Translations under genes and position numbers: made by a program | Assembly: GCA_964615615.1 (NCBI GenBank) | Contig: CAZTQJ010000001.1 | Coordinates: 1-40,617 of the forward strand | Reading direction: 5' to 3' | Length of the DNA: 40,617 bases | Source of the DNA: an uncultured Acidimicrobiaceae bacterium | GTDB lineage: Bacteria > Actinomycetota > Acidimicrobiia > Acidimicrobiales > RAAP-2 | Part shown: piece by piece, positions 1,124 to 35,478 of the stretch | How the letters are laid out: each line of letters starts with the position of its first letter | Numbering within the stretch: position 1 is the stretch's first letter | The notes under the pieces: model-generated | What the model was told of the DNA's origin: nothing | Databases searched by the model: none | The model's input: only the letters and a program-made list of their open reading frames with translations

Positions 1124-1152
1124 TTGCGCCTGAGGGCAAAAGAACCCATAAT
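1124..1152 (+). promoter_or_regulatory. Sigma70-like promoter candidate, TTGCGC-N17-CATAAT.
   Basis: The -35-like hexamer is at 1124-1129, followed by a 17-nt spacer and a -10-like hexamer at 1147-1152. It sits just after the helicase stop. Confidence 0.3.
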
Positions 1153-1203
1153 TTAGGTCCGGTAGCAAACAGAAATTCAACTGAGGTTCCAGTGACAAGT
1201 TTC

Positions 1204-1767
1204 ATGGTTATGAGTGACGCGAACAGGCACACCATCCTTCGGGTGGACGTTGGACCGAAGTTCACGTCTTTCATTGGCCGCACCAAGAAGAACATTGACT
1301 TCCGCAAACTGCCGAACAAGCAGTTTGAGGAAACCTATCTCTGGCAGTATCCGGAGCACCCGATTGTCGGGTTTGCGAATTCGATCTGGAGCCTGCTGGA
1401 ATATGGGGTGCTCGTCACCCTTCGCGCGAGGAAGATCCTCGCCACTTTCTCCAAGGAGCCTTCAATGGCCTCTCCCACCCCCACCCCTGCCAAGATCGCC
1501 AAGGACGCTGAGTTCAAGCCCGTCAAGGCTCCCAAGGTCGCGGCCCCTGTCGCCGAGGGCTCCGAGCCCAAGGCTCGTGGCAAGCGCATCGAGAACCAGA
1601 AGATCCGCCTCCTGGTCAAGAGCAACCCCAAGCGTCCCTCCAGCGCCTCCTTCGGCCGCTTCGAGCTCTACACCACCAACAAGACCACCGACGAGTTCCT
1701 CGCCGCTGGGGGCCTCAGCGCCGACCTGCGCTACGACGTCGAGCACGAGTTCATCGAGCTCTACTAG
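1204..1767 (+). CDS. Hypothetical protein with an N-terminal region of unknown function, a Lys/Ala/Pro-rich segment and a C-terminal domain of about 55 aa paralogous to 27294..27536. A strong in-frame internal start lies at 1465.
   Basis: The frame is open from 1111, and the first ATG is at 1204. AAGGAG lies 6 nt before the ATG at 1465. In 1465-1767 I counted 91 of 100 sense codons ending in C or G and none in A. The alignment I.LLV..NPKR...ELY..T...F.AAGG.SADL..D...FI.L matches the 27294 protein. Confidence 0.6.
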   Translation: MVMSDANRHTILRVDVGPKFTSFIGRTKKNIDFRKLPNKQFEETYLWQYPEHPIVGFANSIWSLLEYGVLVTLRARKILATFSKEPSMASPTPTPAKIAKDAEFKPVKAPKVAAPVAEGSEPKARGKRIENQKIRLLVKSNPKRPSSASFGRFELYTTNKTTDEFLAAGGLSADLRYDVEHEFIELY

Positions 1768-1779
1768 TCCCAGGTTCAA

Positions 1780-1816
1780 GGGCCGCATCCTTCACGGGGT
1801 GCGGCCCTTTCTTTTG
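1780..1816 (+). terminator. Intrinsic terminator.
   Basis: Stem GGGCCGCA (1780-1787) pairs with TGCGGCCC (1800-1807), followed by TTTCTTTTG. Confidence 0.7.
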
Positions 1817-1828
1817 TGAGGTAAGCAA

Positions 1829-2599
1829 GTGATCATTTACATCCCCACACTAAACCGCACACGCAAGCAGATCACCTACGAGAACCTACCCGCCGCCATC
1901 CGCAAGATTGCGGTCTTTGTTGCGAATGAGGCTGATGCGTCGATGCTCAAGCAGAAATACCCACTGTGCAAGGTCATGGTCTGCCTGAAGCATGGCATTG
2001 GCCGGACCCGCCAGTTCATCATCGACAACCACGACTTCGCGAACAGCGGCCCCCAGATCTGCATGCTCGACGATGACCTGAAGTTCTTTGACCGTCGCGA
2101 GGATGACCCCACGAAGTTCGAACTGGCAGGGGAAGAGTCCATTATCGCCATGTTCAACATGATCGCTACCCAGCTTCTGAACCACGCGCTCGTGAGCGTC
2201 ATGACCCGAGAGGGTGGCAACCGGAACACCGAGAACAGCTACAACACTCGTTGCCTGAGAGTGCTGGCCTATGATGCCGGCATCCTACGGCAGGAGAACA
2301 TCAAGTTCGACCGACTACCTGTCATGGAAGACTTTGATGTTGCCCTCCAGCTTCTCCGCAAGGGCTACCCGAATGTCAGCCTCGCCGCATGGGTGCAGGA
2401 TCAGGGTGGCAGCAACACAGCCGGAGGCTGCTCCGGCTATCGCACCATGGAAGTCCAAGCCGAGGGAGCTCATGGCCTGCGGGGATACCATCCCCAGTTC
2501 GTGCGCATCGTAGAGAAAGAGACCAAGGTCGCCTGGGGCGGCAAGAAGCGCACCGATGTCGTGGTCGCTTGGAAGAAGGCATTCAATGCGGACGTCTGA
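1829..2599 (+). CDS. GT-A-fold glycosyltransferase-like protein, resembling TET/JBP-associated glycosyltransferase (TAGT)-type phage proteins.
   Basis: GTG start. The N-terminus IYIPTLNR is Rossmann-like. ICMLDDDLKF is a DxD-like motif, and VMEDFDVALQLL is also present. It is the first gene of the 1829-5317 cassette. Confidence 0.5.
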   Translation: MIIYIPTLNRTRKQITYENLPAAIRKIAVFVANEADASMLKQKYPLCKVMVCLKHGIGRTRQFIIDNHDFANSGPQICMLDDDLKFFDRREDDPTKFELAGEESIIAMFNMIATQLLNHALVSVMTREGGNRNTENSYNTRCLRVLAYDAGILRQENIKFDRLPVMEDFDVALQLLRKGYPNVSLAAWVQDQGGSNTAGGCSGYRTMEVQAEGAHGLRGYHPQFVRIVEKETKVAWGGKKRTDVVVAWKKAFNADV

Positions 2600-3422
2600 G
2601 CTCTGGGCCTTTATCCGCGAGCGACACAATATCTACCTCGCGAAAACCGCTGGCCTTCCCAAGCCTTGGACCCAGGACAAGATCCTGGGTTCTTACCGTT
2701 TCTGCAATATGTATCGGGAGTTGGACTCGGTGACCCTATGGGTGGCTGAGAACTGGCGCAAGCCGCATGAATGGGACAACGACCTCTGGTTCGCTATGGT
2801 CGTGGCCCGACTGGTGAACTGGCCCGACACGCTGGAGATGATTGGCTACCCTGTTCCCTACGACAGCCACCGTTTCGTGAACGAGCTTCACTGCCAGAAG
2901 GCCCTCGGCAAAAAGGCGTTCAGTGGGGCATACATCGTCAGCACCAATGGTCATGCCATGGACAAAGCCGAGTATCTCGACAAGTATGTCCTGAAGCCCC
3001 TGTGGGATAACCGAGCCACCATCCGGCCCACGGAAGGCGACCACCTTGAGGACTTCTTCAACCGTCTCAACAAGTATAACGGGATGGGAAGTTTCATGGC
3101 TGGGCAGGTGATTGCGGATGCGAAATACGCTGGATGCCTCTTTAACGCACCTGATTGGTGGGCGTGGGCAGCTAGTGGACCGGGTAGTCGCAGGGGTCTC
3201 AACCGGGTCACCAGCCGTCCTGTTGATGCATCGTGGCCCGGTAACACATGGCACAAAACACTGTCGGAACTCAAGGTGCAGATCGACCACTTCGTGAACG
3301 CCGCTGGCTGGCCTGAGCTCCATGCCCAGGATCTCCAGAACTGTCTCTGCGAGTGGGATAAGTATGAGCGGACTCGGTTGGGCGAGGGCAAGCCCCGCTC
3401 CGGCTACCCTGGAGGTCTGTGA
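2586..3422 (+). CDS. Alpha-glutamyl/putrescinyl thymine pyrophosphorylase (aGPT-Pplase)-like protein. This is a tentative family call.
   Basis: The ORF is open from 2556, and ATGs lie at 2556 and 2586. The N-terminal motif PKPWTQDKILGSYRFCNMYRELDSVT, followed by DLWFAMVVARLVNWPDT, matches my recollection of this family. Its stop overlaps the next start as TGATG. Confidence 0.45.
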   Translation: MRTSELWAFIRERHNIYLAKTAGLPKPWTQDKILGSYRFCNMYRELDSVTLWVAENWRKPHEWDNDLWFAMVVARLVNWPDTLEMIGYPVPYDSHRFVNELHCQKALGKKAFSGAYIVSTNGHAMDKAEYLDKYVLKPLWDNRATIRPTEGDHLEDFFNRLNKYNGMGSFMAGQVIADAKYAGCLFNAPDWWAWAASGPGSRRGLNRVTSRPVDASWPGNTWHKTLSELKVQIDHFVNAAGWPELHAQDLQNCLCEWDKYERTRLGEGKPRSGYPGGL

Positions 3423-4414
3423 TGTATGTGATCCAGGCACTGAATGTGAACCATGCTCTCGCCGCTGGCCTGCGCTATCTGAACGAGCATGGGGAGCATG
3501 AAGAAAGCCGAAACGGTCCGGTGCTGGTCTCCCCCACGCCGGTCACTACGATGTATGCGATGCCCGAGCAGCGGGTGATGTTCAACCCCTTGCGAGAGGC
3601 CAACCCTTTCTTCCACCTTATGGAAGCCCTGTGGATGATGGCTGGCCGAAACGACCTCGCATGGCCCCTCTACTTCAACAAGCGATTCGTCGATTACAGT
3701 GACGACGGACAGACCATCCACGGAGCCTACGGCTACCGATGGCGGCAGCACTTCGAGATTGACCAGATCCACCAAGTCGTCAAGGAACTGCAGAACAACC
3801 CCAACTCTCGCCGCGCTGTGATCGGGATGTGGGATCCCGTTGCCGACTGTGGGGCGAACTTCCTGGACCTTCCCTGCAACACGACTATCTACTTCCGTGT
3901 GCGAAGTCGGTGCCTTGACATGACGGTGTGCAACCGTAGCAATGACATCTACTGGGGAGCCTATGGTGCGAACGCTGTCCACATGAGCATCCTGCAAGAG
4001 TTTGTCGCCAGGGCTCTCGGCCTGGGCATGGGATACTACTATCAAGTGAGCAACAACTATCACCTCTATACCGGCCTCATCGAGTTGGAGTCCAATTCTG
4101 CACGTGAGACGATGGCCCACCATAGCCTCAAGAATGACCACTACTCGGCACCCTTCATTGAGACGGTCAGCACCTATCCGCTGATGACCACAGCCGCTAC
4201 CTCATGGATGGCCGACCTCGCCCAGTTCATGACCCTGCCCACCAAGCGAGATGGATACACCGACCCCTTCTTTACCGAGGTGGCTGTGCCGATGTTCTGT
4301 GCATGGCATGAACGCAAGCAGAAAGTGAGTGACGGAGCGCACTGGGTATCACAGATTGCCGCTGATGACTGGCGGCTGGCCTGCACTGAATGGATGGATC
4401 GGAGAGTCAAGTGA
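3422..4414 (+). CDS. Divergent thymidylate-synthase-superfamily enzyme, either ThyA-like or a deoxypyrimidylate hydroxymethylase-like enzyme.
   Basis: GGAGG lies 6 nt upstream of the start. Motifs EALWMMAGRND, YGYRWR, NPNSRRAVIGMWD, LPCNTTIYF (catalytic Cys context), CNRSNDIYWG and NNYHLY are colinear with E. coli ThyA. Confidence 0.75.
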   Translation: MYVIQALNVNHALAAGLRYLNEHGEHEESRNGPVLVSPTPVTTMYAMPEQRVMFNPLREANPFFHLMEALWMMAGRNDLAWPLYFNKRFVDYSDDGQTIHGAYGYRWRQHFEIDQIHQVVKELQNNPNSRRAVIGMWDPVADCGANFLDLPCNTTIYFRVRSRCLDMTVCNRSNDIYWGAYGANAVHMSILQEFVARALGLGMGYYYQVSNNYHLYTGLIELESNSARETMAHHSLKNDHYSAPFIETVSTYPLMTTAATSWMADLAQFMTLPTKRDGYTDPFFTEVAVPMFCAWHERKQKVSDGAHWVSQIAADDWRLACTEWMDRRVK

Positions 4415-4929
4415 GAGAAGAACTTCTTAAGCGTGTCGATTTCATCCGCAAGGGTGGGAACACCAAGCGATATCACACTATCAACACCATCAACGAGAAT
4501 ACCGTGGCGCACCACAGTTTCGGCGTGGCGTGGATGATCTGGATGATTGGCGTCCCCACTGTCAATCTCCTGATGGCAGCACTGGCTCACGACCTCGCCG
4601 AGCAGGTGACTGGGGACATATCCTCCCCCACCAAGCGGCGGTTCCCTGAGCTGGCCTCTATGGTTCAACTCATGGAGGATGAAGTCCTTGACTCCCACAA
4701 TATGTTCTACCAGCTTAACGAGGAAGAGGCTCGCACTCTTAAGATGGCTGACCGTATGGACGGGATGCTGTTCTGCACCAATGAATTCGAACTGGGGAAC
4801 AGGGCGATTATCGAAGTCTACAACCGATACGTCTCCTATGTCGCCGAACTGAAACCCGTAGGCCGCGAGTGGGAAGTGTATCAGGCCATTCGCGCCATTA
4901 TGATGAGGCACACCGATGCAATCAGCTAA
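4390..4929 (+). CDS. HD-domain phosphohydrolase, YfbR-like 5-prime-deoxynucleotidase family.
   Basis: Motifs KRYH..NENTVAHHSFGVAW and ALAHDLAEQVTGDISSPTKR are present. The alternative GTG start at 4411 overlaps the upstream stop as GTGA. Confidence 0.75.
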   Translation: MDGSESQVREELLKRVDFIRKGGNTKRYHTINTINENTVAHHSFGVAWMIWMIGVPTVNLLMAALAHDLAEQVTGDISSPTKRRFPELASMVQLMEDEVLDSHNMFYQLNEEEARTLKMADRMDGMLFCTNEFELGNRAIIEVYNRYVSYVAELKPVGREWEVYQAIRAIMMRHTDAIS

Positions 4930-5317
4930 TAACAAACAGGAAGGTGGGTCTCACTATGCAGGCGAGTATCAGCACTGGGACTTCGTCTGTGAGTGCCTGG
5001 GCGGTAGGTATCTGGAGGGGAACCTCACCAAGTATATCGCTCGCTGGCGCAAGAAGAACGGGCTCCAGGACATCAGGAAAGCCCTGCACTACTTACTCAA
5101 GATTCGCGAGCTCTTTGCGGACGGTGATCTGACAGCCCCGCCTATTGCTCGGCGATCAGGCTCCGTCGAGCGTTTCTGCCTTGTAAACAATCTCGGCTCC
5201 CTAGAGAGCCGAGTGATGTGGATGGCAGCGAACTGGGAAGGAACGCGTGATTTGGATGTTCTCCAATCGGTGCTTCAGGAACTGGAATCTGAGGCCCTGT
5301 TGATCGCTATGTCCTAG
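4916..5317 (+). CDS. DUF3310-like small phage protein.
   Basis: Motif GGSHY...YQHWDFV...GNLTKYIARWRKKNGLQDIRKALHYL is present. It overlaps the upstream gene by 14 nt. Confidence 0.6.
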   Translation: MQSANNKQEGGSHYAGEYQHWDFVCECLGGRYLEGNLTKYIARWRKKNGLQDIRKALHYLLKIRELFADGDLTAPPIARRSGSVERFCLVNNLGSLESRVMWMAANWEGTRDLDVLQSVLQELESEALLIAMS

Positions 5318-26510: not shown

Positions 26511-26760
26511 TGCTACGACACGAGGCAAGAAGTGCATGACCCGGTGCATAGAAGACGTTGCAATATGCCACGGCGGACCGTTTATGCAGGGAACGGGCAA
26601 ATTATGCATGACTAAAAAGTATGCACTTAACACTAAGCCATGCCATGCCAGCACTTAGCATTAACACTAGCTACGAAAACAATGCATAATTTACCACTGT
26701 TAAATGGGGGAGCATATGCAAGCCGCTGTAAACAATGCACTTAGTAACGCATATAACAGT

Positions 26761-26860
26761 ATTACAGTTTACACTACTTTTAAATAATAATAATAAATAA
26801 TAATATATAGGGTAACAATATATAGTATATGGTTTTAAACAGTGTAAAACTGTAAATGTG
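26761..26860. other. Extremely AT-rich tract with an (AAT)n-like run. This is a candidate DNA unwinding element.
   Basis: I counted 9 G/C in 26761-26820 (15%) and 17 of 60 in 26821-26880, whereas the rest of the genome is visibly GC-rich. Confidence 0.6.
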
Positions 26861-26862
26861 TT

Positions 26863-26942
26863 TAAGTGCATTGTTTGCAGCATTACCAAGCCTAAGCCCA
26901 AAATAAACTGTTATTTACTTGGTGCTGCAAACAATGCACTTA
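26863..26942. repeat. Large inverted repeat with a perfect 19-bp core, extendable to arms of about 25 bp with a 3-nt bulge.
   Basis: TAAGTGCATTGTTTGCAGC (26863-26881) is the reverse complement of 26924-26942. ACCAAG (26885-26890) pairs with CTTGGT (26918-26923). Confidence 0.9.
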
Positions 26943-26970
26943 GCAAAATGTTACTGCAAACAATACACTT

Positions 26971-27001
26971 GCAAACCTTAGTGCATTGTGCTAAGGTTTG
27001 C
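26971..27001. repeat. Perfect 11-bp stem hairpin/palindrome with a 9-nt loop that carries the repeat word.
   Basis: GCAAACCTTAG (26971-26981) pairs with CTAAGGTTTGC (26991-27001). The loop is TGCATTGTG. Confidence 0.85.
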
Positions 27002-27140
27002 ACCCCATAGGCTACCCAAGGGTAAACAACGCACCCCATAAACACAGTTTGCAGTAACAATGGGCATTGTTACCCTGCACAGTAACAATGCGCCTAATTT
27101 TTATACAGACAAAATAATAAAAGTATTTTGAAATTAGGGC

Positions 27141-27169
27141 TTGCACAGCGCCGCCCAATGGCTTAACCT
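27141..27169 (+). promoter_or_regulatory. Promoter candidate TTGCAC-N17-TAACCT.
   Basis: It has the same architecture, and the same TAACCTTTAGGTA-like -10 context, as the candidate at 27849-27877. Confidence 0.3.
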
Positions 27170-27227
27170 TTAGGTAATAAGTAGTGCCGGTCTTTGCCAA
27201 ACCCATAGCGCATAAAACCTTTTTACC

Positions 27228-27253
27228 GTAACAATGCAATACCGCATTGTTAC
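27228..27253. promoter_or_regulatory. Operator-like palindrome GTAACAATGC-N6-GCATTGTTAC.
   Basis: It is a perfect 10-bp inverted repeat ending 4 nt before the -35-like TTGCGG of the adjacent promoter candidate. It is built from the iteron word. Confidence 0.6.
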
Positions 27254-27293: not shown

Positions 27294-27536
27294 ATGCCCA
27301 AGCAAGCTACCACGCCCAGCACCACGCCCAGCACCCCTAAGGTGCCTAAGGTGGCAAACCAAGCCATTACCCTACTGGTAACGGTAAATCCCAAACGTGG
27401 CAAAAGCCAAGCCCGTTACGAGCTGTATAAAACCTGCACCACTACCCATGCTTTTATTGCGGCAGGTGGTTACAGCGCCGACCTTGCCTGGGACACCCAG
27501 CGCAAGTTTATTAGCCTTGCACCCATTACCGCCTAA
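27294..27536 (+). CDS. Small protein (80 aa) paralogous to the C-terminus of 1204..1767. It is a candidate DNA-binding regulator or origin-binding protein.
   Basis: It is a clean ORF between the operator-like palindrome and an intrinsic terminator, with the shared motif LLV..NPKR...ELY...F.AAGG.SADL. I counted 32 of 80 codons ending in A or T. Confidence 0.75.
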   Translation: MPKQATTPSTTPSTPKVPKVANQAITLLVTVNPKRGKSQARYELYKTCTTTHAFIAAGGYSADLAWDTQRKFISLAPITA

Positions 27537-34267: not shown

Positions 34268-34666
34268 GTGCCCAAAGAAGTTAAACCGTTTCAAGTTCCA
34301 AGTTCGCTGCCCTTGTGCGCCGACCTGCTCTATTCTACACGAATTGCCCGACTCGCCCTGCAGAAACAGGTGGATGAGTTGGAAACCCGGGAGAAGGCCA
34401 TTCGCGCCCACCTCATCGAAACCTTCCTGAACGGCGACGCCACCGGGACCGCCGGGAAGCTGGCGAACTGCTCCCTGGTGGAGAAGGAGGAGCCCACGCC
34501 TGAGGACTGGGAGGCCACCTGGAAGTATATCTCCAAGAAGAAGGCGTGGGACTTGATTCAGAAGCGGCTGTCGGCCCCTGCTGTCAAGGCTCGCTGGGAG
34601 AACGGCGAAGAAATCCCTGGTATCGGCCACATCCGTGTCCACACCATCTCGGTTACCAAGGTCTAG
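34268..34666 (+). CDS. Hypothetical conserved replication-module protein (132 aa).
   Basis: AAGGAGG lies 5 nt before the GTG at 34268. The ORF is open from 34244. Confidence 0.55.
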   Translation: MPKEVKPFQVPSSLPLCADLLYSTRIARLALQKQVDELETREKAIRAHLIETFLNGDATGTAGKLANCSLVEKEEPTPEDWEATWKYISKKKAWDLIQKRLSAPAVKARWENGEEIPGIGHIRVHTISVTKV

Positions 34667-34719
34667 GCAAGACCGAGCCGGGGCGGTATCCCCGGCACTG
34701 TTCAAGTTGGAGTTACATC

Positions 34720-35478
34720 ATGGTCAAGACCTTCACCAAAGCACCGGCATCCGCTGGGCTCAACAAGTGGGACGAGGATCTGGCGAAGTTTGCCAGCGAA
34801 GCGTCTGCCAAGGAATCCGTGGGCGGAGGCTCGTTCCTCAGCTTCAAGAGCGGCATGCTCTCCTTCGGCGGTAGCGCAATCCCCGGCAACAAGCTGGACG
34901 TCATCGTGCTGGGCGATGTCCACGAGAACGCCTACTACGACCAGCCGTTTGACGCTGACAACCCGGTCAGCCCCGCCTGCTTCGCCTTCGGCAACGACGC
35001 CAGCACCATGGAGCCCCATGAGGGTGCCAAGGATCCCCAGTCGGCGAAGTGCGCGACTTGCAAGTGGAACGCCTTCGGGTCGGCCGACAATGGCAAGGGC
35101 AAGAAGTGCCGGAACATCCGGAAGCTGGCCGTGATTGCGGCGGACCAGCTGAGCGATGTGGTCGGGGCCGAGCTGGCCTTTGCCAAGATCCCGCCCACTA
35201 GCGTGACGAACTTCTCCACGCACACGAAGCGTGTCGCTGACGTCGCGCACCGTCCCCTGTGGGCCGCGATCACCAGCATCTCCTGCGCCCCGCACCTCAA
35301 GAAGCAGGTGGAGGTTTCCTTCGCCTTCGTGGACAGCATCAAGGACGGCGAGCAGTTGGGAGCTCTCAAGGCCCGAGTCGACAGCATCCAGGCCAGCTTG
35401 CAGGTTGCCTACACTTACAGCGAGGCCACTCCCGCCCCCTCGACTGCCTCAGCAAGCAAGGTGAAGGGCCGCCGGTAG
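34720..35478 (+). CDS. Hypothetical protein, possibly a ssDNA-binding or annealing protein with a CxxC-containing motif.
   Basis: The ATG is at 34720. The longer ORF from 34546 overlaps the upstream gene. The motif is CATCKWNAFGSADNGKGKKCRNIRKLA. The functional suggestion rests on position only. Confidence 0.45.
   Translation: MVKTFTKAPASAGLNKWDEDLAKFASEASAKESVGGGSFLSFKSGMLSFGGSAIPGNKLDVIVLGDVHENAYYDQPFDADNPVSPACFAFGNDASTMEPHEGAKDPQSAKCATCKWNAFGSADNGKGKKCRNIRKLAVIAADQLSDVVGAELAFAKIPPTSVTNFSTHTKRVADVAHRPLWAAITSISCAPHLKKQVEVSFAFVDSIKDGEQLGALKARVDSIQASLQVAYTYSEATPAPSTASASKVKGRR

Follow-up and report, generated by a model that had tools for sequence, protein, structure and literature searches.

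Does the gene that lies between an SNF2 helicase gene and a set of DNA modification genes in this phage genome encode one protein or two, and what might its products do? We examined this question for the open reading frame (ORF) at positions 1204 to 1767, plus strand, of a 40,617-nucleotide stretch of DNA (contig CAZTQJ010000001.1, here called the window). The window is an essentially complete phage genome (~40.6 kb, 56% GC) with a P22-type coat gene. A first-pass annotation, made from the sequence alone, had proposed two nested products from this ORF, a long one starting at 1204 and a short one starting at an in-frame ATG at 1465. The DNA of eight close relatives, with 58 to 98% protein identity, was compared, and 20 viral and 52 metagenomic loci encoding the C-terminal domain of the product (C-domain) were taken in for a deeper comparison. 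We lean slightly towards a reading in which the gene yields two in-frame isoforms, an abundant short DNA-associated protein and a scarce long partner.

Codon usage of the short frame

The first-pass annotation had counted 91 of the 100 codons from ATG 1465 as ending in C or G and none as ending in A, with AAGGAG 6 nt upstream of the ATG, and these counts were correct. Over codons 1465 to 1764, the third base is C in 65, G in 26, T in 9, and A in 0. The G+C fraction at third codon positions (GC3) is 0.91, compared to 0.75 in the 87 upstream codons and 0.80 in the coat gene, and this 100-codon stretch has the joint-highest GC3 of the 8167 such windows in the genome. An index resembling the codon adaptation index (CAI-like index) was calculated for 19 genes and gene halves using the coat gene as the codon reference. 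The short frame (1465 to 1764) had the highest value of the 19, 0.88, while the upstream half reached 0.49 and the other 16 genes scored, including a paralogue of the gene, ranged from 0.41 to 0.65. Only GC3 was raised in the short frame; G+C at the first and second positions (GC1 and GC2) was not. Together with the index of 0.88, this indicates that the bias matches the coat-type codon choices of the phage and is not merely a consequence of high GC.

The short frame therefore has the codon usage of a highly expressed gene, close to that of the coat gene and far above the genome average, which bears out the earlier suggestion that the coat-like bias implies very high expression, as far as expression can be predicted from codons. 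No gene scored comes closer to the coat gene in its codons than the short form, whose product is on this ground predicted to rank with the most abundant ones that the phage makes; we consider its abundance likely. The codon step is also present in seven of the eight relatives, with a GC3 of 0.60 to 0.70 upstream and 0.84 to 0.91 downstream, and GC3 climbs to 0.93 to 0.97 within the C-domain of the relatives. The step is weak in L001, which has a lower GC content (GC3 of 0.66 upstream and 0.71 downstream).

Conservation of the proposed internal start

The pattern AAG GAG CCw nnn ATG GC is invariant across all eight close relatives, down to ~58% protein identity, and the residue preceding the internal Met varies among them (S, F, L, T, V, or P). 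The two spacer codons end in A or T in 15 of 16 cases in these genomes, against a surrounding GC3 of ~0.66. On the plus-strand arm, the other AAGGAG motifs that have an ATG 5 to 9 nt downstream, with a frame of 60 amino acids (aa) or more behind it (30174, 30618, 33118, 33303, and 36122), all look like gene starts. Conservation extends beyond the close relatives. In all nine lineages that carry the N-terminal domain (N-domain), an in-frame ATG lies at the very start of the low-complexity tail, with a Shine-Dalgarno (SD)-like motif (AAGGAGG, AAGGAG, AGGAG, GAGGA, AAGGA, or GGAG) 5 to 11 nt upstream, and the junction peptide varies by lineage (KEPSM, KEDEM, GEVEM, GEDDIM, KGNATM, and others). 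The locus thus has the features of an in-frame nested gene, namely an SD-like motif and a suitably spaced ATG at a domain boundary, kept in relatives. The distant homologues have other internal in-frame ATGs, of which only one, in L020, has a strong SD motif, and that one is probably the true start of the gene.

Genes that encode the short form only were also found. L007 has such a gene (136 aa) directly upstream of the gene for the TET-associated glycosyltransferase (TAGT), and L030 and L031 have a 95-aa version between the SNF2 and TAGT genes. The two starts of the window gene are probably both used, to judge from these patterns, and the earlier proposal of ordinary upstream codons followed by nested long and short products gained support from the conservation of both the SD-ATG pair and the codon step. 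P0163, a database protein of 96 aa whose first residue is the internal Met, was rejected as a further free-standing short form, as its call ends at a contig edge and the N-domain frame is open upstream at that locus. A separate short mRNA was likewise discarded: no internal sigma-70 promoter was found in 900 to 2100, and a promoter-like match in L009 overlaps the ATG itself and so is unable to serve it.

Long reading frame and N-terminal domain

Fifteen homologues of the long frame were found, 14 of which have the full two-domain length (181 to 226 aa) with no stop between the domains. The long form has three in-frame candidate starts, GTG 1192, ATG 1204, and ATG 1210. GTG 1192 has GAGG 5 nt upstream, and the gene calls of the relatives mostly pick the first start, yielding proteins that begin M-T/P-S/D-F/Y-MVMSD. 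The true start may be GTG 1192, in which case the start at 1204 chosen in the first-pass annotation is 12 nt too far downstream.

The N-domain was modeled with AlphaFold2 on a 17-sequence alignment as a small alpha/beta domain, with residues 1 to 80 at a predicted local distance difference test (pLDDT) score of ~79 to 93. A Foldseek search of the PDB returned nothing for it at an E value of ≤0.001 (best, 0.24), and a hidden Markov model (HMM) search of PDB sequences gave no significant match (best E value, 0.095). Foldseek matches to Crl and GNAT proteins (E > 0.2; template modeling [TM] score, <0.2) were discarded. By HMM, homologous N-domains occur in nine distinct lineages, each time paired with a C-domain; no N-domain-only protein was found in the profile search, the C-domain being present in every match.

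Linker and C-terminal domain

The short form consists of a low-complexity linker and the C-domain. The linker includes the segment MASPTPTPAKIAKDAEFKPVKAPKVAAPVAEGSEPKARGKR, which has an isoelectric point (pI) of 10.1 and is 55% Ala, Pro, and Lys. The first-pass annotation had likened this region to histone H1 or an HU tail. The Ala/Lys/Pro-rich segment is present as described, but it is only mildly basic in the window; the tails of the relatives are far richer in lysine, and the H1-like character is clearer there. The long and short forms, the paralogue, and 70 family members were scanned against Pfam-A, and HU/IHF (PF00216) was matched by none of them, even at E ≤ 1. Neither the linker histone H1/H5 profile (PF00538) nor a bacterial H1-like profile (HCT) was matched in Pfam or NCBIfam, and the resemblance is limited to the low-complexity tail. 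In the lineage of L018/L062 and L068, the region between the N-domain and the C-domain is expanded to ~230 residues, more than 100 of which are near-pure Ala/Lys/Thr/Pro repeats, an extreme H1-like tail.

The C-domain was modeled with AlphaFold2 from a 70-sequence alignment at a pLDDT of ~90, in the order beta1, H1, H2, a GG turn, H3, and beta2. Across the 70 sequences, no variation is seen in the Asn-Pro-Lys of the loop behind beta1, in the Tyr that closes H1, or in the leading Gly of the GG turn that joins H2 to H3. The Arg directly after Asn-Pro-Lys, the other Gly of the turn, and one Asp of H3 are nearly invariant. The family as defined by the profile is large: when clustered at 50% identity, it has at least 3017 representatives at E ≤ 1e-3 and 787 at the stricter cutoff of 1e-10, and the domain is nearly always at the C terminus of the protein. 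No match to it was found in Pfam, PHROGs, NCBIfam, or PDB sequences. A tblastn search of 50,697 phage records returned PhiJL001 gp18 as the sole match in a cultured phage and no annotated relative, and literature searches found no description of the domain.

Promoter candidate and terminator

The gene is bracketed by a promoter candidate and an intrinsic terminator (Table 1), as the first-pass annotation had noted, and both are conserved in the eight relatives. The promoter candidate falls below the scan threshold in the window because its -35 hexamer matches only three of six positions. However, all eight relatives retain the pattern TTGC(G/A)N-17 nt-(C/T)A(T/C)A(A/C)T while the spacer sequence diverges, and the orthologous sites of L009 and L010 clear the scan.

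The terminator has a predicted fold of -29.5 kcal/mol (z score, -4.0), which was equaled by none of 200 shuffled sequences, and it ends ~10 nt before GTG 1829 of the TAGT gene. A hairpin of -30 to -36 kcal/mol lies at the same place in every relative, with differing stem sequences, and is followed by a T-rich run and then directly by the SD motif and GTG of the TAGT gene. The conservation of this arrangement makes read-through into the downstream cassette plausible, and with it the earlier suggestion that the cassette depends on such read-through, since the terminator abuts the start of the cassette in all eight.

Genomic context and relatives of the C-domain

The gene belongs to the arm of the genome that serves replication and DNA modification. 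Its upstream neighbor is the SNF2 helicase gene (1 to 1110), and downstream a Pfam scan identified five tightly packed genes (Table 1). We read this module (1829 to 5317) as a hydroxymethyluracil (hmU) glycosylation cassette, with glycosylated hmU as its predicted product. The order SNF2-gene-TAGT is found in 7 of the 20 viral loci, and TAGT directly follows the gene in 3 more; the TAGT proteins at these loci are 28 to 51% identical to that of the window. Two distant members sit in replication modules, among helicase, ligase, thymidylate synthase, and deaminase genes without TAGT. A general link between the C-domain and the TAGT cassette was therefore rejected, as the association is confined to this phage lineage.

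TABLE 1 Features of the window discussed in the text
Feature	Position	Strand	Details
Sigma-70-type promoter candidate	1124-1152	+	TTGCGC-17 nt-CATAAT; below scan threshold in the window
Long reading frame (N-domain, linker, C-domain)	1192-1767	+	191 aa from GTG 1192 or 187 aa from ATG 1204
N-terminal alpha/beta domain	1204-1452	+	~85 aa; ordinary codon usage; AlphaFold2
Internal translation initiation region	1453-1467	+	AAGGAG 1453-1458, 6-nt A/T-ending spacer (CCTTCA), ATG 1465
Nested short frame (linker, C-domain)	1465-1767	+	100 aa, 11.0 kDa, pI 9.4; predicted abundant product
Disordered linker/tail	1465-1590	+	Rich in Pro, Thr, Ala, and Lys; pLDDT 51-64
C-terminal domain	1591-1764	+	~55 aa; beta-helix-helix-helix-beta; AlphaFold2
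Intrinsic terminator	1778-1819	+	14-bp GC-rich stem (1778-1809), then T-run TCTTTTGT
TET-associated glycosyltransferase (TAGT)	1829-2599		Start GTG 1829
Protein with helical domain of 5-hmdU DNA kinase	2556-3422		
Thymidylate-synthase-like enzyme	3419-4414		
HD/YfbR-like hydrolase	4390-4929		
DUF3310 protein	4916-5317		
Paralogue, short-form-like	27294-27536	+	80 aa; Pro/Thr/Lys-rich N-terminal tail; ordinary codons; own terminator

Other clues to function come from the wider family. Long Ala/Lys/Pro-rich, H1-like tails precede the C-domain in many members, and some members have a tandem pair of C-domains. Recognized fusion partners were rare among the 55 longer members scanned and comprised an SNF2 helicase (P0105), a helicase C-terminal domain, PHD fingers (three proteins), and an ADP-ribosyltransferase (one protein). 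The tails, fusions, tandem copies, and gene neighborhoods, together with a fold in which a GG turn separates two helices and a loop carries an invariant Lys and a nearly invariant Arg, suggest a DNA-associated role.

P0105 (645 aa) is a homologue of the SNF2 helicase of the window whose own C terminus is fused to an Ala/Lys-rich linker and a C-domain. The corresponding parts are neighboring genes in the window, a hint that the helicase and the C-domain may work together. P0016, P0017, P0029, P0044, and P0042 also have the C-domain. Some are long proteins, eukaryotic or giant virus-like in appearance, in which it accompanies acidic stretches and zinc fingers of the PHD or RING-like kind; another, of 1023 aa, has an ADP-ribosyltransferase domain. 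These members indicate that the family reaches well beyond the tailed phages.

Proposed model

In the reading that we favor, the conserved promoter would drive a monocistronic mRNA, making the gene a self-contained transcription unit. A weak upstream start (GAGG-GTG 1192 or ATG 1204) would yield little of the 187- to 191-aa protein, and the strong internal start (AAGGAG-6 nt-ATG 1465) would yield much of an 11-kDa, 100-aa protein made of the linker and the C-domain. The terminator would limit transcription passing into the glycosyltransferase cassette. The short form would act as an architectural protein, comparable to linker histone H1, phi29 p6, or SPO1 TF1, associated with the phage DNA during replication and modification, and the long form would be a minor partner whose N-domain adds an extra contact. 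The long form may assemble together with short copies, in the manner of the two-polypeptide endolysins. The chances that the short form binds DNA are, in our view, evenly balanced, and specificity for modified DNA is unlikely.

A number of observations weigh against this reading. The tail in the window has 9 Lys and Arg residues against 4 Asp and Glu across 42 residues, and the compact C-domain is mildly acidic, with a pI of 5.7. No known DNA-binding family was matched in Pfam or NCBIfam. A structural search with the domain shared with the paralogue, as suggested in the first-pass annotation, gave no significant fold match that would place it among the helix-turn-helix or winged-helix domains or elsewhere; the best Foldseek match in the PDB was the insert domain of MetAP2/Ebp1 (E value, 1.8 to 8; TM score, 0.3 to 0.4), and only uncharacterized phage proteins were matched in BFVD. 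The DNA-binding activity claimed earlier is accordingly putative, given the pI of the domain, Foldseek E values above 1, and the lack of a match to the HU and H1 families. The conserved gene order could come from the shared ancestry of one phage lineage rather than from functional coupling.

Other points concern the nested start. Many longer family members with unrelated N-terminal parts have no strong internal SD-ATG, indicating that the nested design belongs to the N-domain clade and some others and not to the whole family. Greater accessibility of the mRNA at the internal start was not supported, since the predicted cost of opening is 8.6 kcal/mol at ATG 1465 and 5.3 kcal/mol at GTG 1192. 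Finally, GC3 in the relatives climbs ~14 codons past the internal ATG and not at the ATG. A delay of this kind fits the relaxed codon usage commonly found just past a start codon but does not prove one.

Alternative explanations

A serious alternative to DNA binding is a role in protein interaction or host takeover, which we regard as possible rather than probable. Two products would still be made, but the C-domain would be a protein-protein or oligomerization module and the short form a stoichiometric host-takeover or counter-defense factor, titrating, for example, the host polymerase, a nucleoid protein, or a restriction system, with the basic linker serving only as a spacer. The mild acidity of the C-domain fits such a module, as does its third helix, which is rich in Asp and Glu, and neither a DNA-binding family nor a DNA-binding fold was matched. 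In the family, the majority of the N-terminal partners are uncharacterized domains; the SNF2 helicase and PHD fingers among the recognized ones argue the other way. Ala/Pro-rich segments are common passive linkers, but strongly lysine-rich tails recur in many members, which is less readily explained by a mere spacer. The genes are, in addition, consistently placed among replication and DNA modification genes, and the paralogue is located in a field of repeated DNA words; both observations speak for an association with DNA.

It is also conceivable, if unlikely, that only the full-length protein is made, with the codon step and the AAGGAG-ATG arising as by-products, for example, through recombination of a linker and C-domain of higher GC3, and Lys-Glu-Pro-x-Met being kept for protein reasons. 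The C-domain is indeed a mobile module with many partners. However, acquired DNA should drift to the usage of the genome, and the step survives in seven of the eight relatives after up to ~40% protein divergence; the codons, moreover, match the coat gene of the phage itself, beyond high GC. This persistence and this match make the single-product model with recombination improbable. K-E-P-x-M is conserved as amino acids too, and AAG and GAG are preferred codons anyway, but neither fact accounts for spacer codons that remain A/T-ending though the residue before the Met changes or for the differing junction peptides of nine lineages, all of which encode an SD-like motif and an ATG. The predicted accessibility does not favor the internal start; the short-only genes at the same locus do favor a short product.

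We also considered a more specific role for the short protein, as a dedicated "chromatin" protein or reader of the glycosylated-hmU DNA of the phage, with the long isoform as a tether, in a counterpart of the JBP2/J-binding protein/JGT system. The short protein would then coat or mark modified DNA or guide the adjacent glycosyltransferase to such DNA, and the N-domain of the long isoform would anchor the coat to one of the neighboring gene products, the SNF2 helicase or the transferase. The Asn-Pro-Lys loop and the nearly invariant Arg might form a minor-groove hook of the H-NS/Lsr2 type. We hold this elaborated version to be quite improbable.

Protection of an overlapping gene, either an antisense ORF at 1462 to 1788 (108 aa) or a +2-frame ORF at 1214 to 1819, was rejected as the source of the third-position bias and is hardly credible: the antisense -1 frame is open over the whole short frame in all eight relatives, but it opens automatically once TTA, CTA, and TCA are absent from the sense strand, stops occur in the +2, +3, -2, and -3 frames of several relatives, the antisense product is a low-complexity shadow sequence with its ATG inside the terminator stem, and the preference for AAG over AAA, GAG over GAA, and C over T in 2-fold codons would be left unexplained.

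Comparison with known systems

The favored reading, two isoforms of which the short one is abundant and associated with DNA, has precedents for its separate parts. In-frame nested genes have long been known in phages, as in T7 gene 4A/4B, lambda C/Nu3, and phiX174 A/A*. In two-polypeptide phage endolysins, in-frame overlapping ORFs are expressed through internal translation start sites and the products form heteromers (PMC9430671). The short endolysin product supplies extra copies of the C-terminal module that join the full-length chain, at a ratio of up to 1:5 in LysP7951 (PMC9430671). The window gene is similar in that one gene with a shared stop would give a shorter product, consisting of the C-terminal module, from an SD-ATG inside the frame, located where domains meet or in a linker. 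In contrast to the endolysins, it encodes no lysis enzyme, its domains are unrelated, and the evidence consists of conservation and codon bias rather than protein gels.

Abundant DNA-organizing proteins have also been described in phages. p6 of phi29, a small podovirus, is a very abundant histone-like protein that organizes the phage DNA, and TF1 is abundant in SPO1, a phage with hmU DNA. With these precedents, the earlier remark that an abundant small DNA-binding protein would be unusual for a podovirus is overstated. TF1 is described as a type II DNA-binding protein of the HU type, encoded by the phage and with a preference for hydroxymethyluracil DNA (Grove et al. 1996, J Mol Biol 260:196, as cited in PMC3969353). 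The window protein resembles TF1 in its small size, its predicted abundance, and its location beside hmU glycosylation genes in a phage with predicted hmU-derived bases, but it has no HU/IHF sequence relationship by Pfam and a predicted beta-three-helix-beta fold. The likeness to p6 is that of a small podovirus protein, expressed early or in the middle phase, whose abundance is known for p6 and predicted here; there is no detectable homology, and p6 is not known to have a nested long isoform or an Ala/Lys/Pro-rich tail.

H1 and H1-like proteins include linker histone H1, Chlamydia Hc1, Pseudomonas AlgP, and the tail of mycobacterial HupB. As in these proteins, a compact helical domain is combined with a disordered, basic Ala/Lys/Pro-rich tail, which is very H1-like in relatives of the window gene. 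However, the tail in the window is N-terminal to the domain and mildly basic, and the domain is unmatched to the H1/H5 globular family.

The kinetoplastid base J machinery comprises JBP2 (an SNF2 ATPase), JBP1 (with a J-DNA-binding domain), and the glucosyltransferase JGT. Similarly, the window has the gene for a small putative DNA-binding protein directly between those for an SNF2 ATPase and a TET-associated glycosyltransferase, and glycosylated hmU is the predicted product. In contrast to the base J system, there is no TET/JBP dioxygenase in the window, and hmU would be made at the nucleotide level by the thymidylate-synthase-like enzyme. The C-domain is unrelated to the DNA-binding domain of JBP1 as far as tested.

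Abundant phage DNA-organizing proteins and in-frame nested phage genes are thus already known. The domain family, its combination with an H1-like tail, the conserved nested isoform design, and the position beside a glycosyl-hmU pathway are new. If the favored reading is true, a domain without a description in any database forms the basis of one of the most abundant proteins in a phage group found widely in metagenomes, from freshwater and elsewhere. This protein would represent a new class of phage "histone-like" protein, encoded beside a base J-like DNA modification pathway. It would also extend the two-polypeptide strategy, documented mainly for endolysins, scaffold/protease genes, and primase-helicases, to a DNA-associated protein. 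In practice, the case shows how nested genes overlooked by gene callers may be recognized from a codon bias step paired with a conserved internal SD-ATG.

Paralogue and additional observations

The first-pass annotation had aligned the C-terminal part of the 1204-1767 product with the product of the gene at 27294, and this paralogy was confirmed by BLASTP, with 31 identities over 59 aa (53%; E value, 7e-19). The paralogue has a GC3 of 0.60 and a CAI-like index of 0.41, and the L036 phage retains it at 84% identity. A perfect inverted repeat, GTAACAATGC-N6-GCATTGTTAC, is located at 27228 to 27253, ~40 nt upstream of the paralogue ATG (27294). For the word AACAATGC, 1.2 copies are expected in the window but 9 are present, 8 of them within 26678 to 27251. 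The shared C-domain makes the paralogue a candidate for binding these words.

Metagenomic contigs related to the window are 38 to 40.7 kb long. Among 185,579 species-representative genomes, the only match was locus L037 (contig JANYKK010000146.1, 40,722 bp), which encodes P0007, a protein 69% identical to the window protein. This contig was binned in a metagenome-assembled genome of a Methylobacter sp., a weak hint of methanotrophic Gammaproteobacteria as hosts for this phage group.

A second gene of the window shares the top GC3 value. Codons 171 to 270 of the gene at 34546 to 35478, the probable start of which is ATG 34720, have a GC3 of 0.91 and zero A-ending codons. The ligase and DNA polymerase genes flank this gene, for which the only matches were PHROGs of unknown function. 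Its product may be another abundant protein of the replication module, for example, a single-strand-binding protein.

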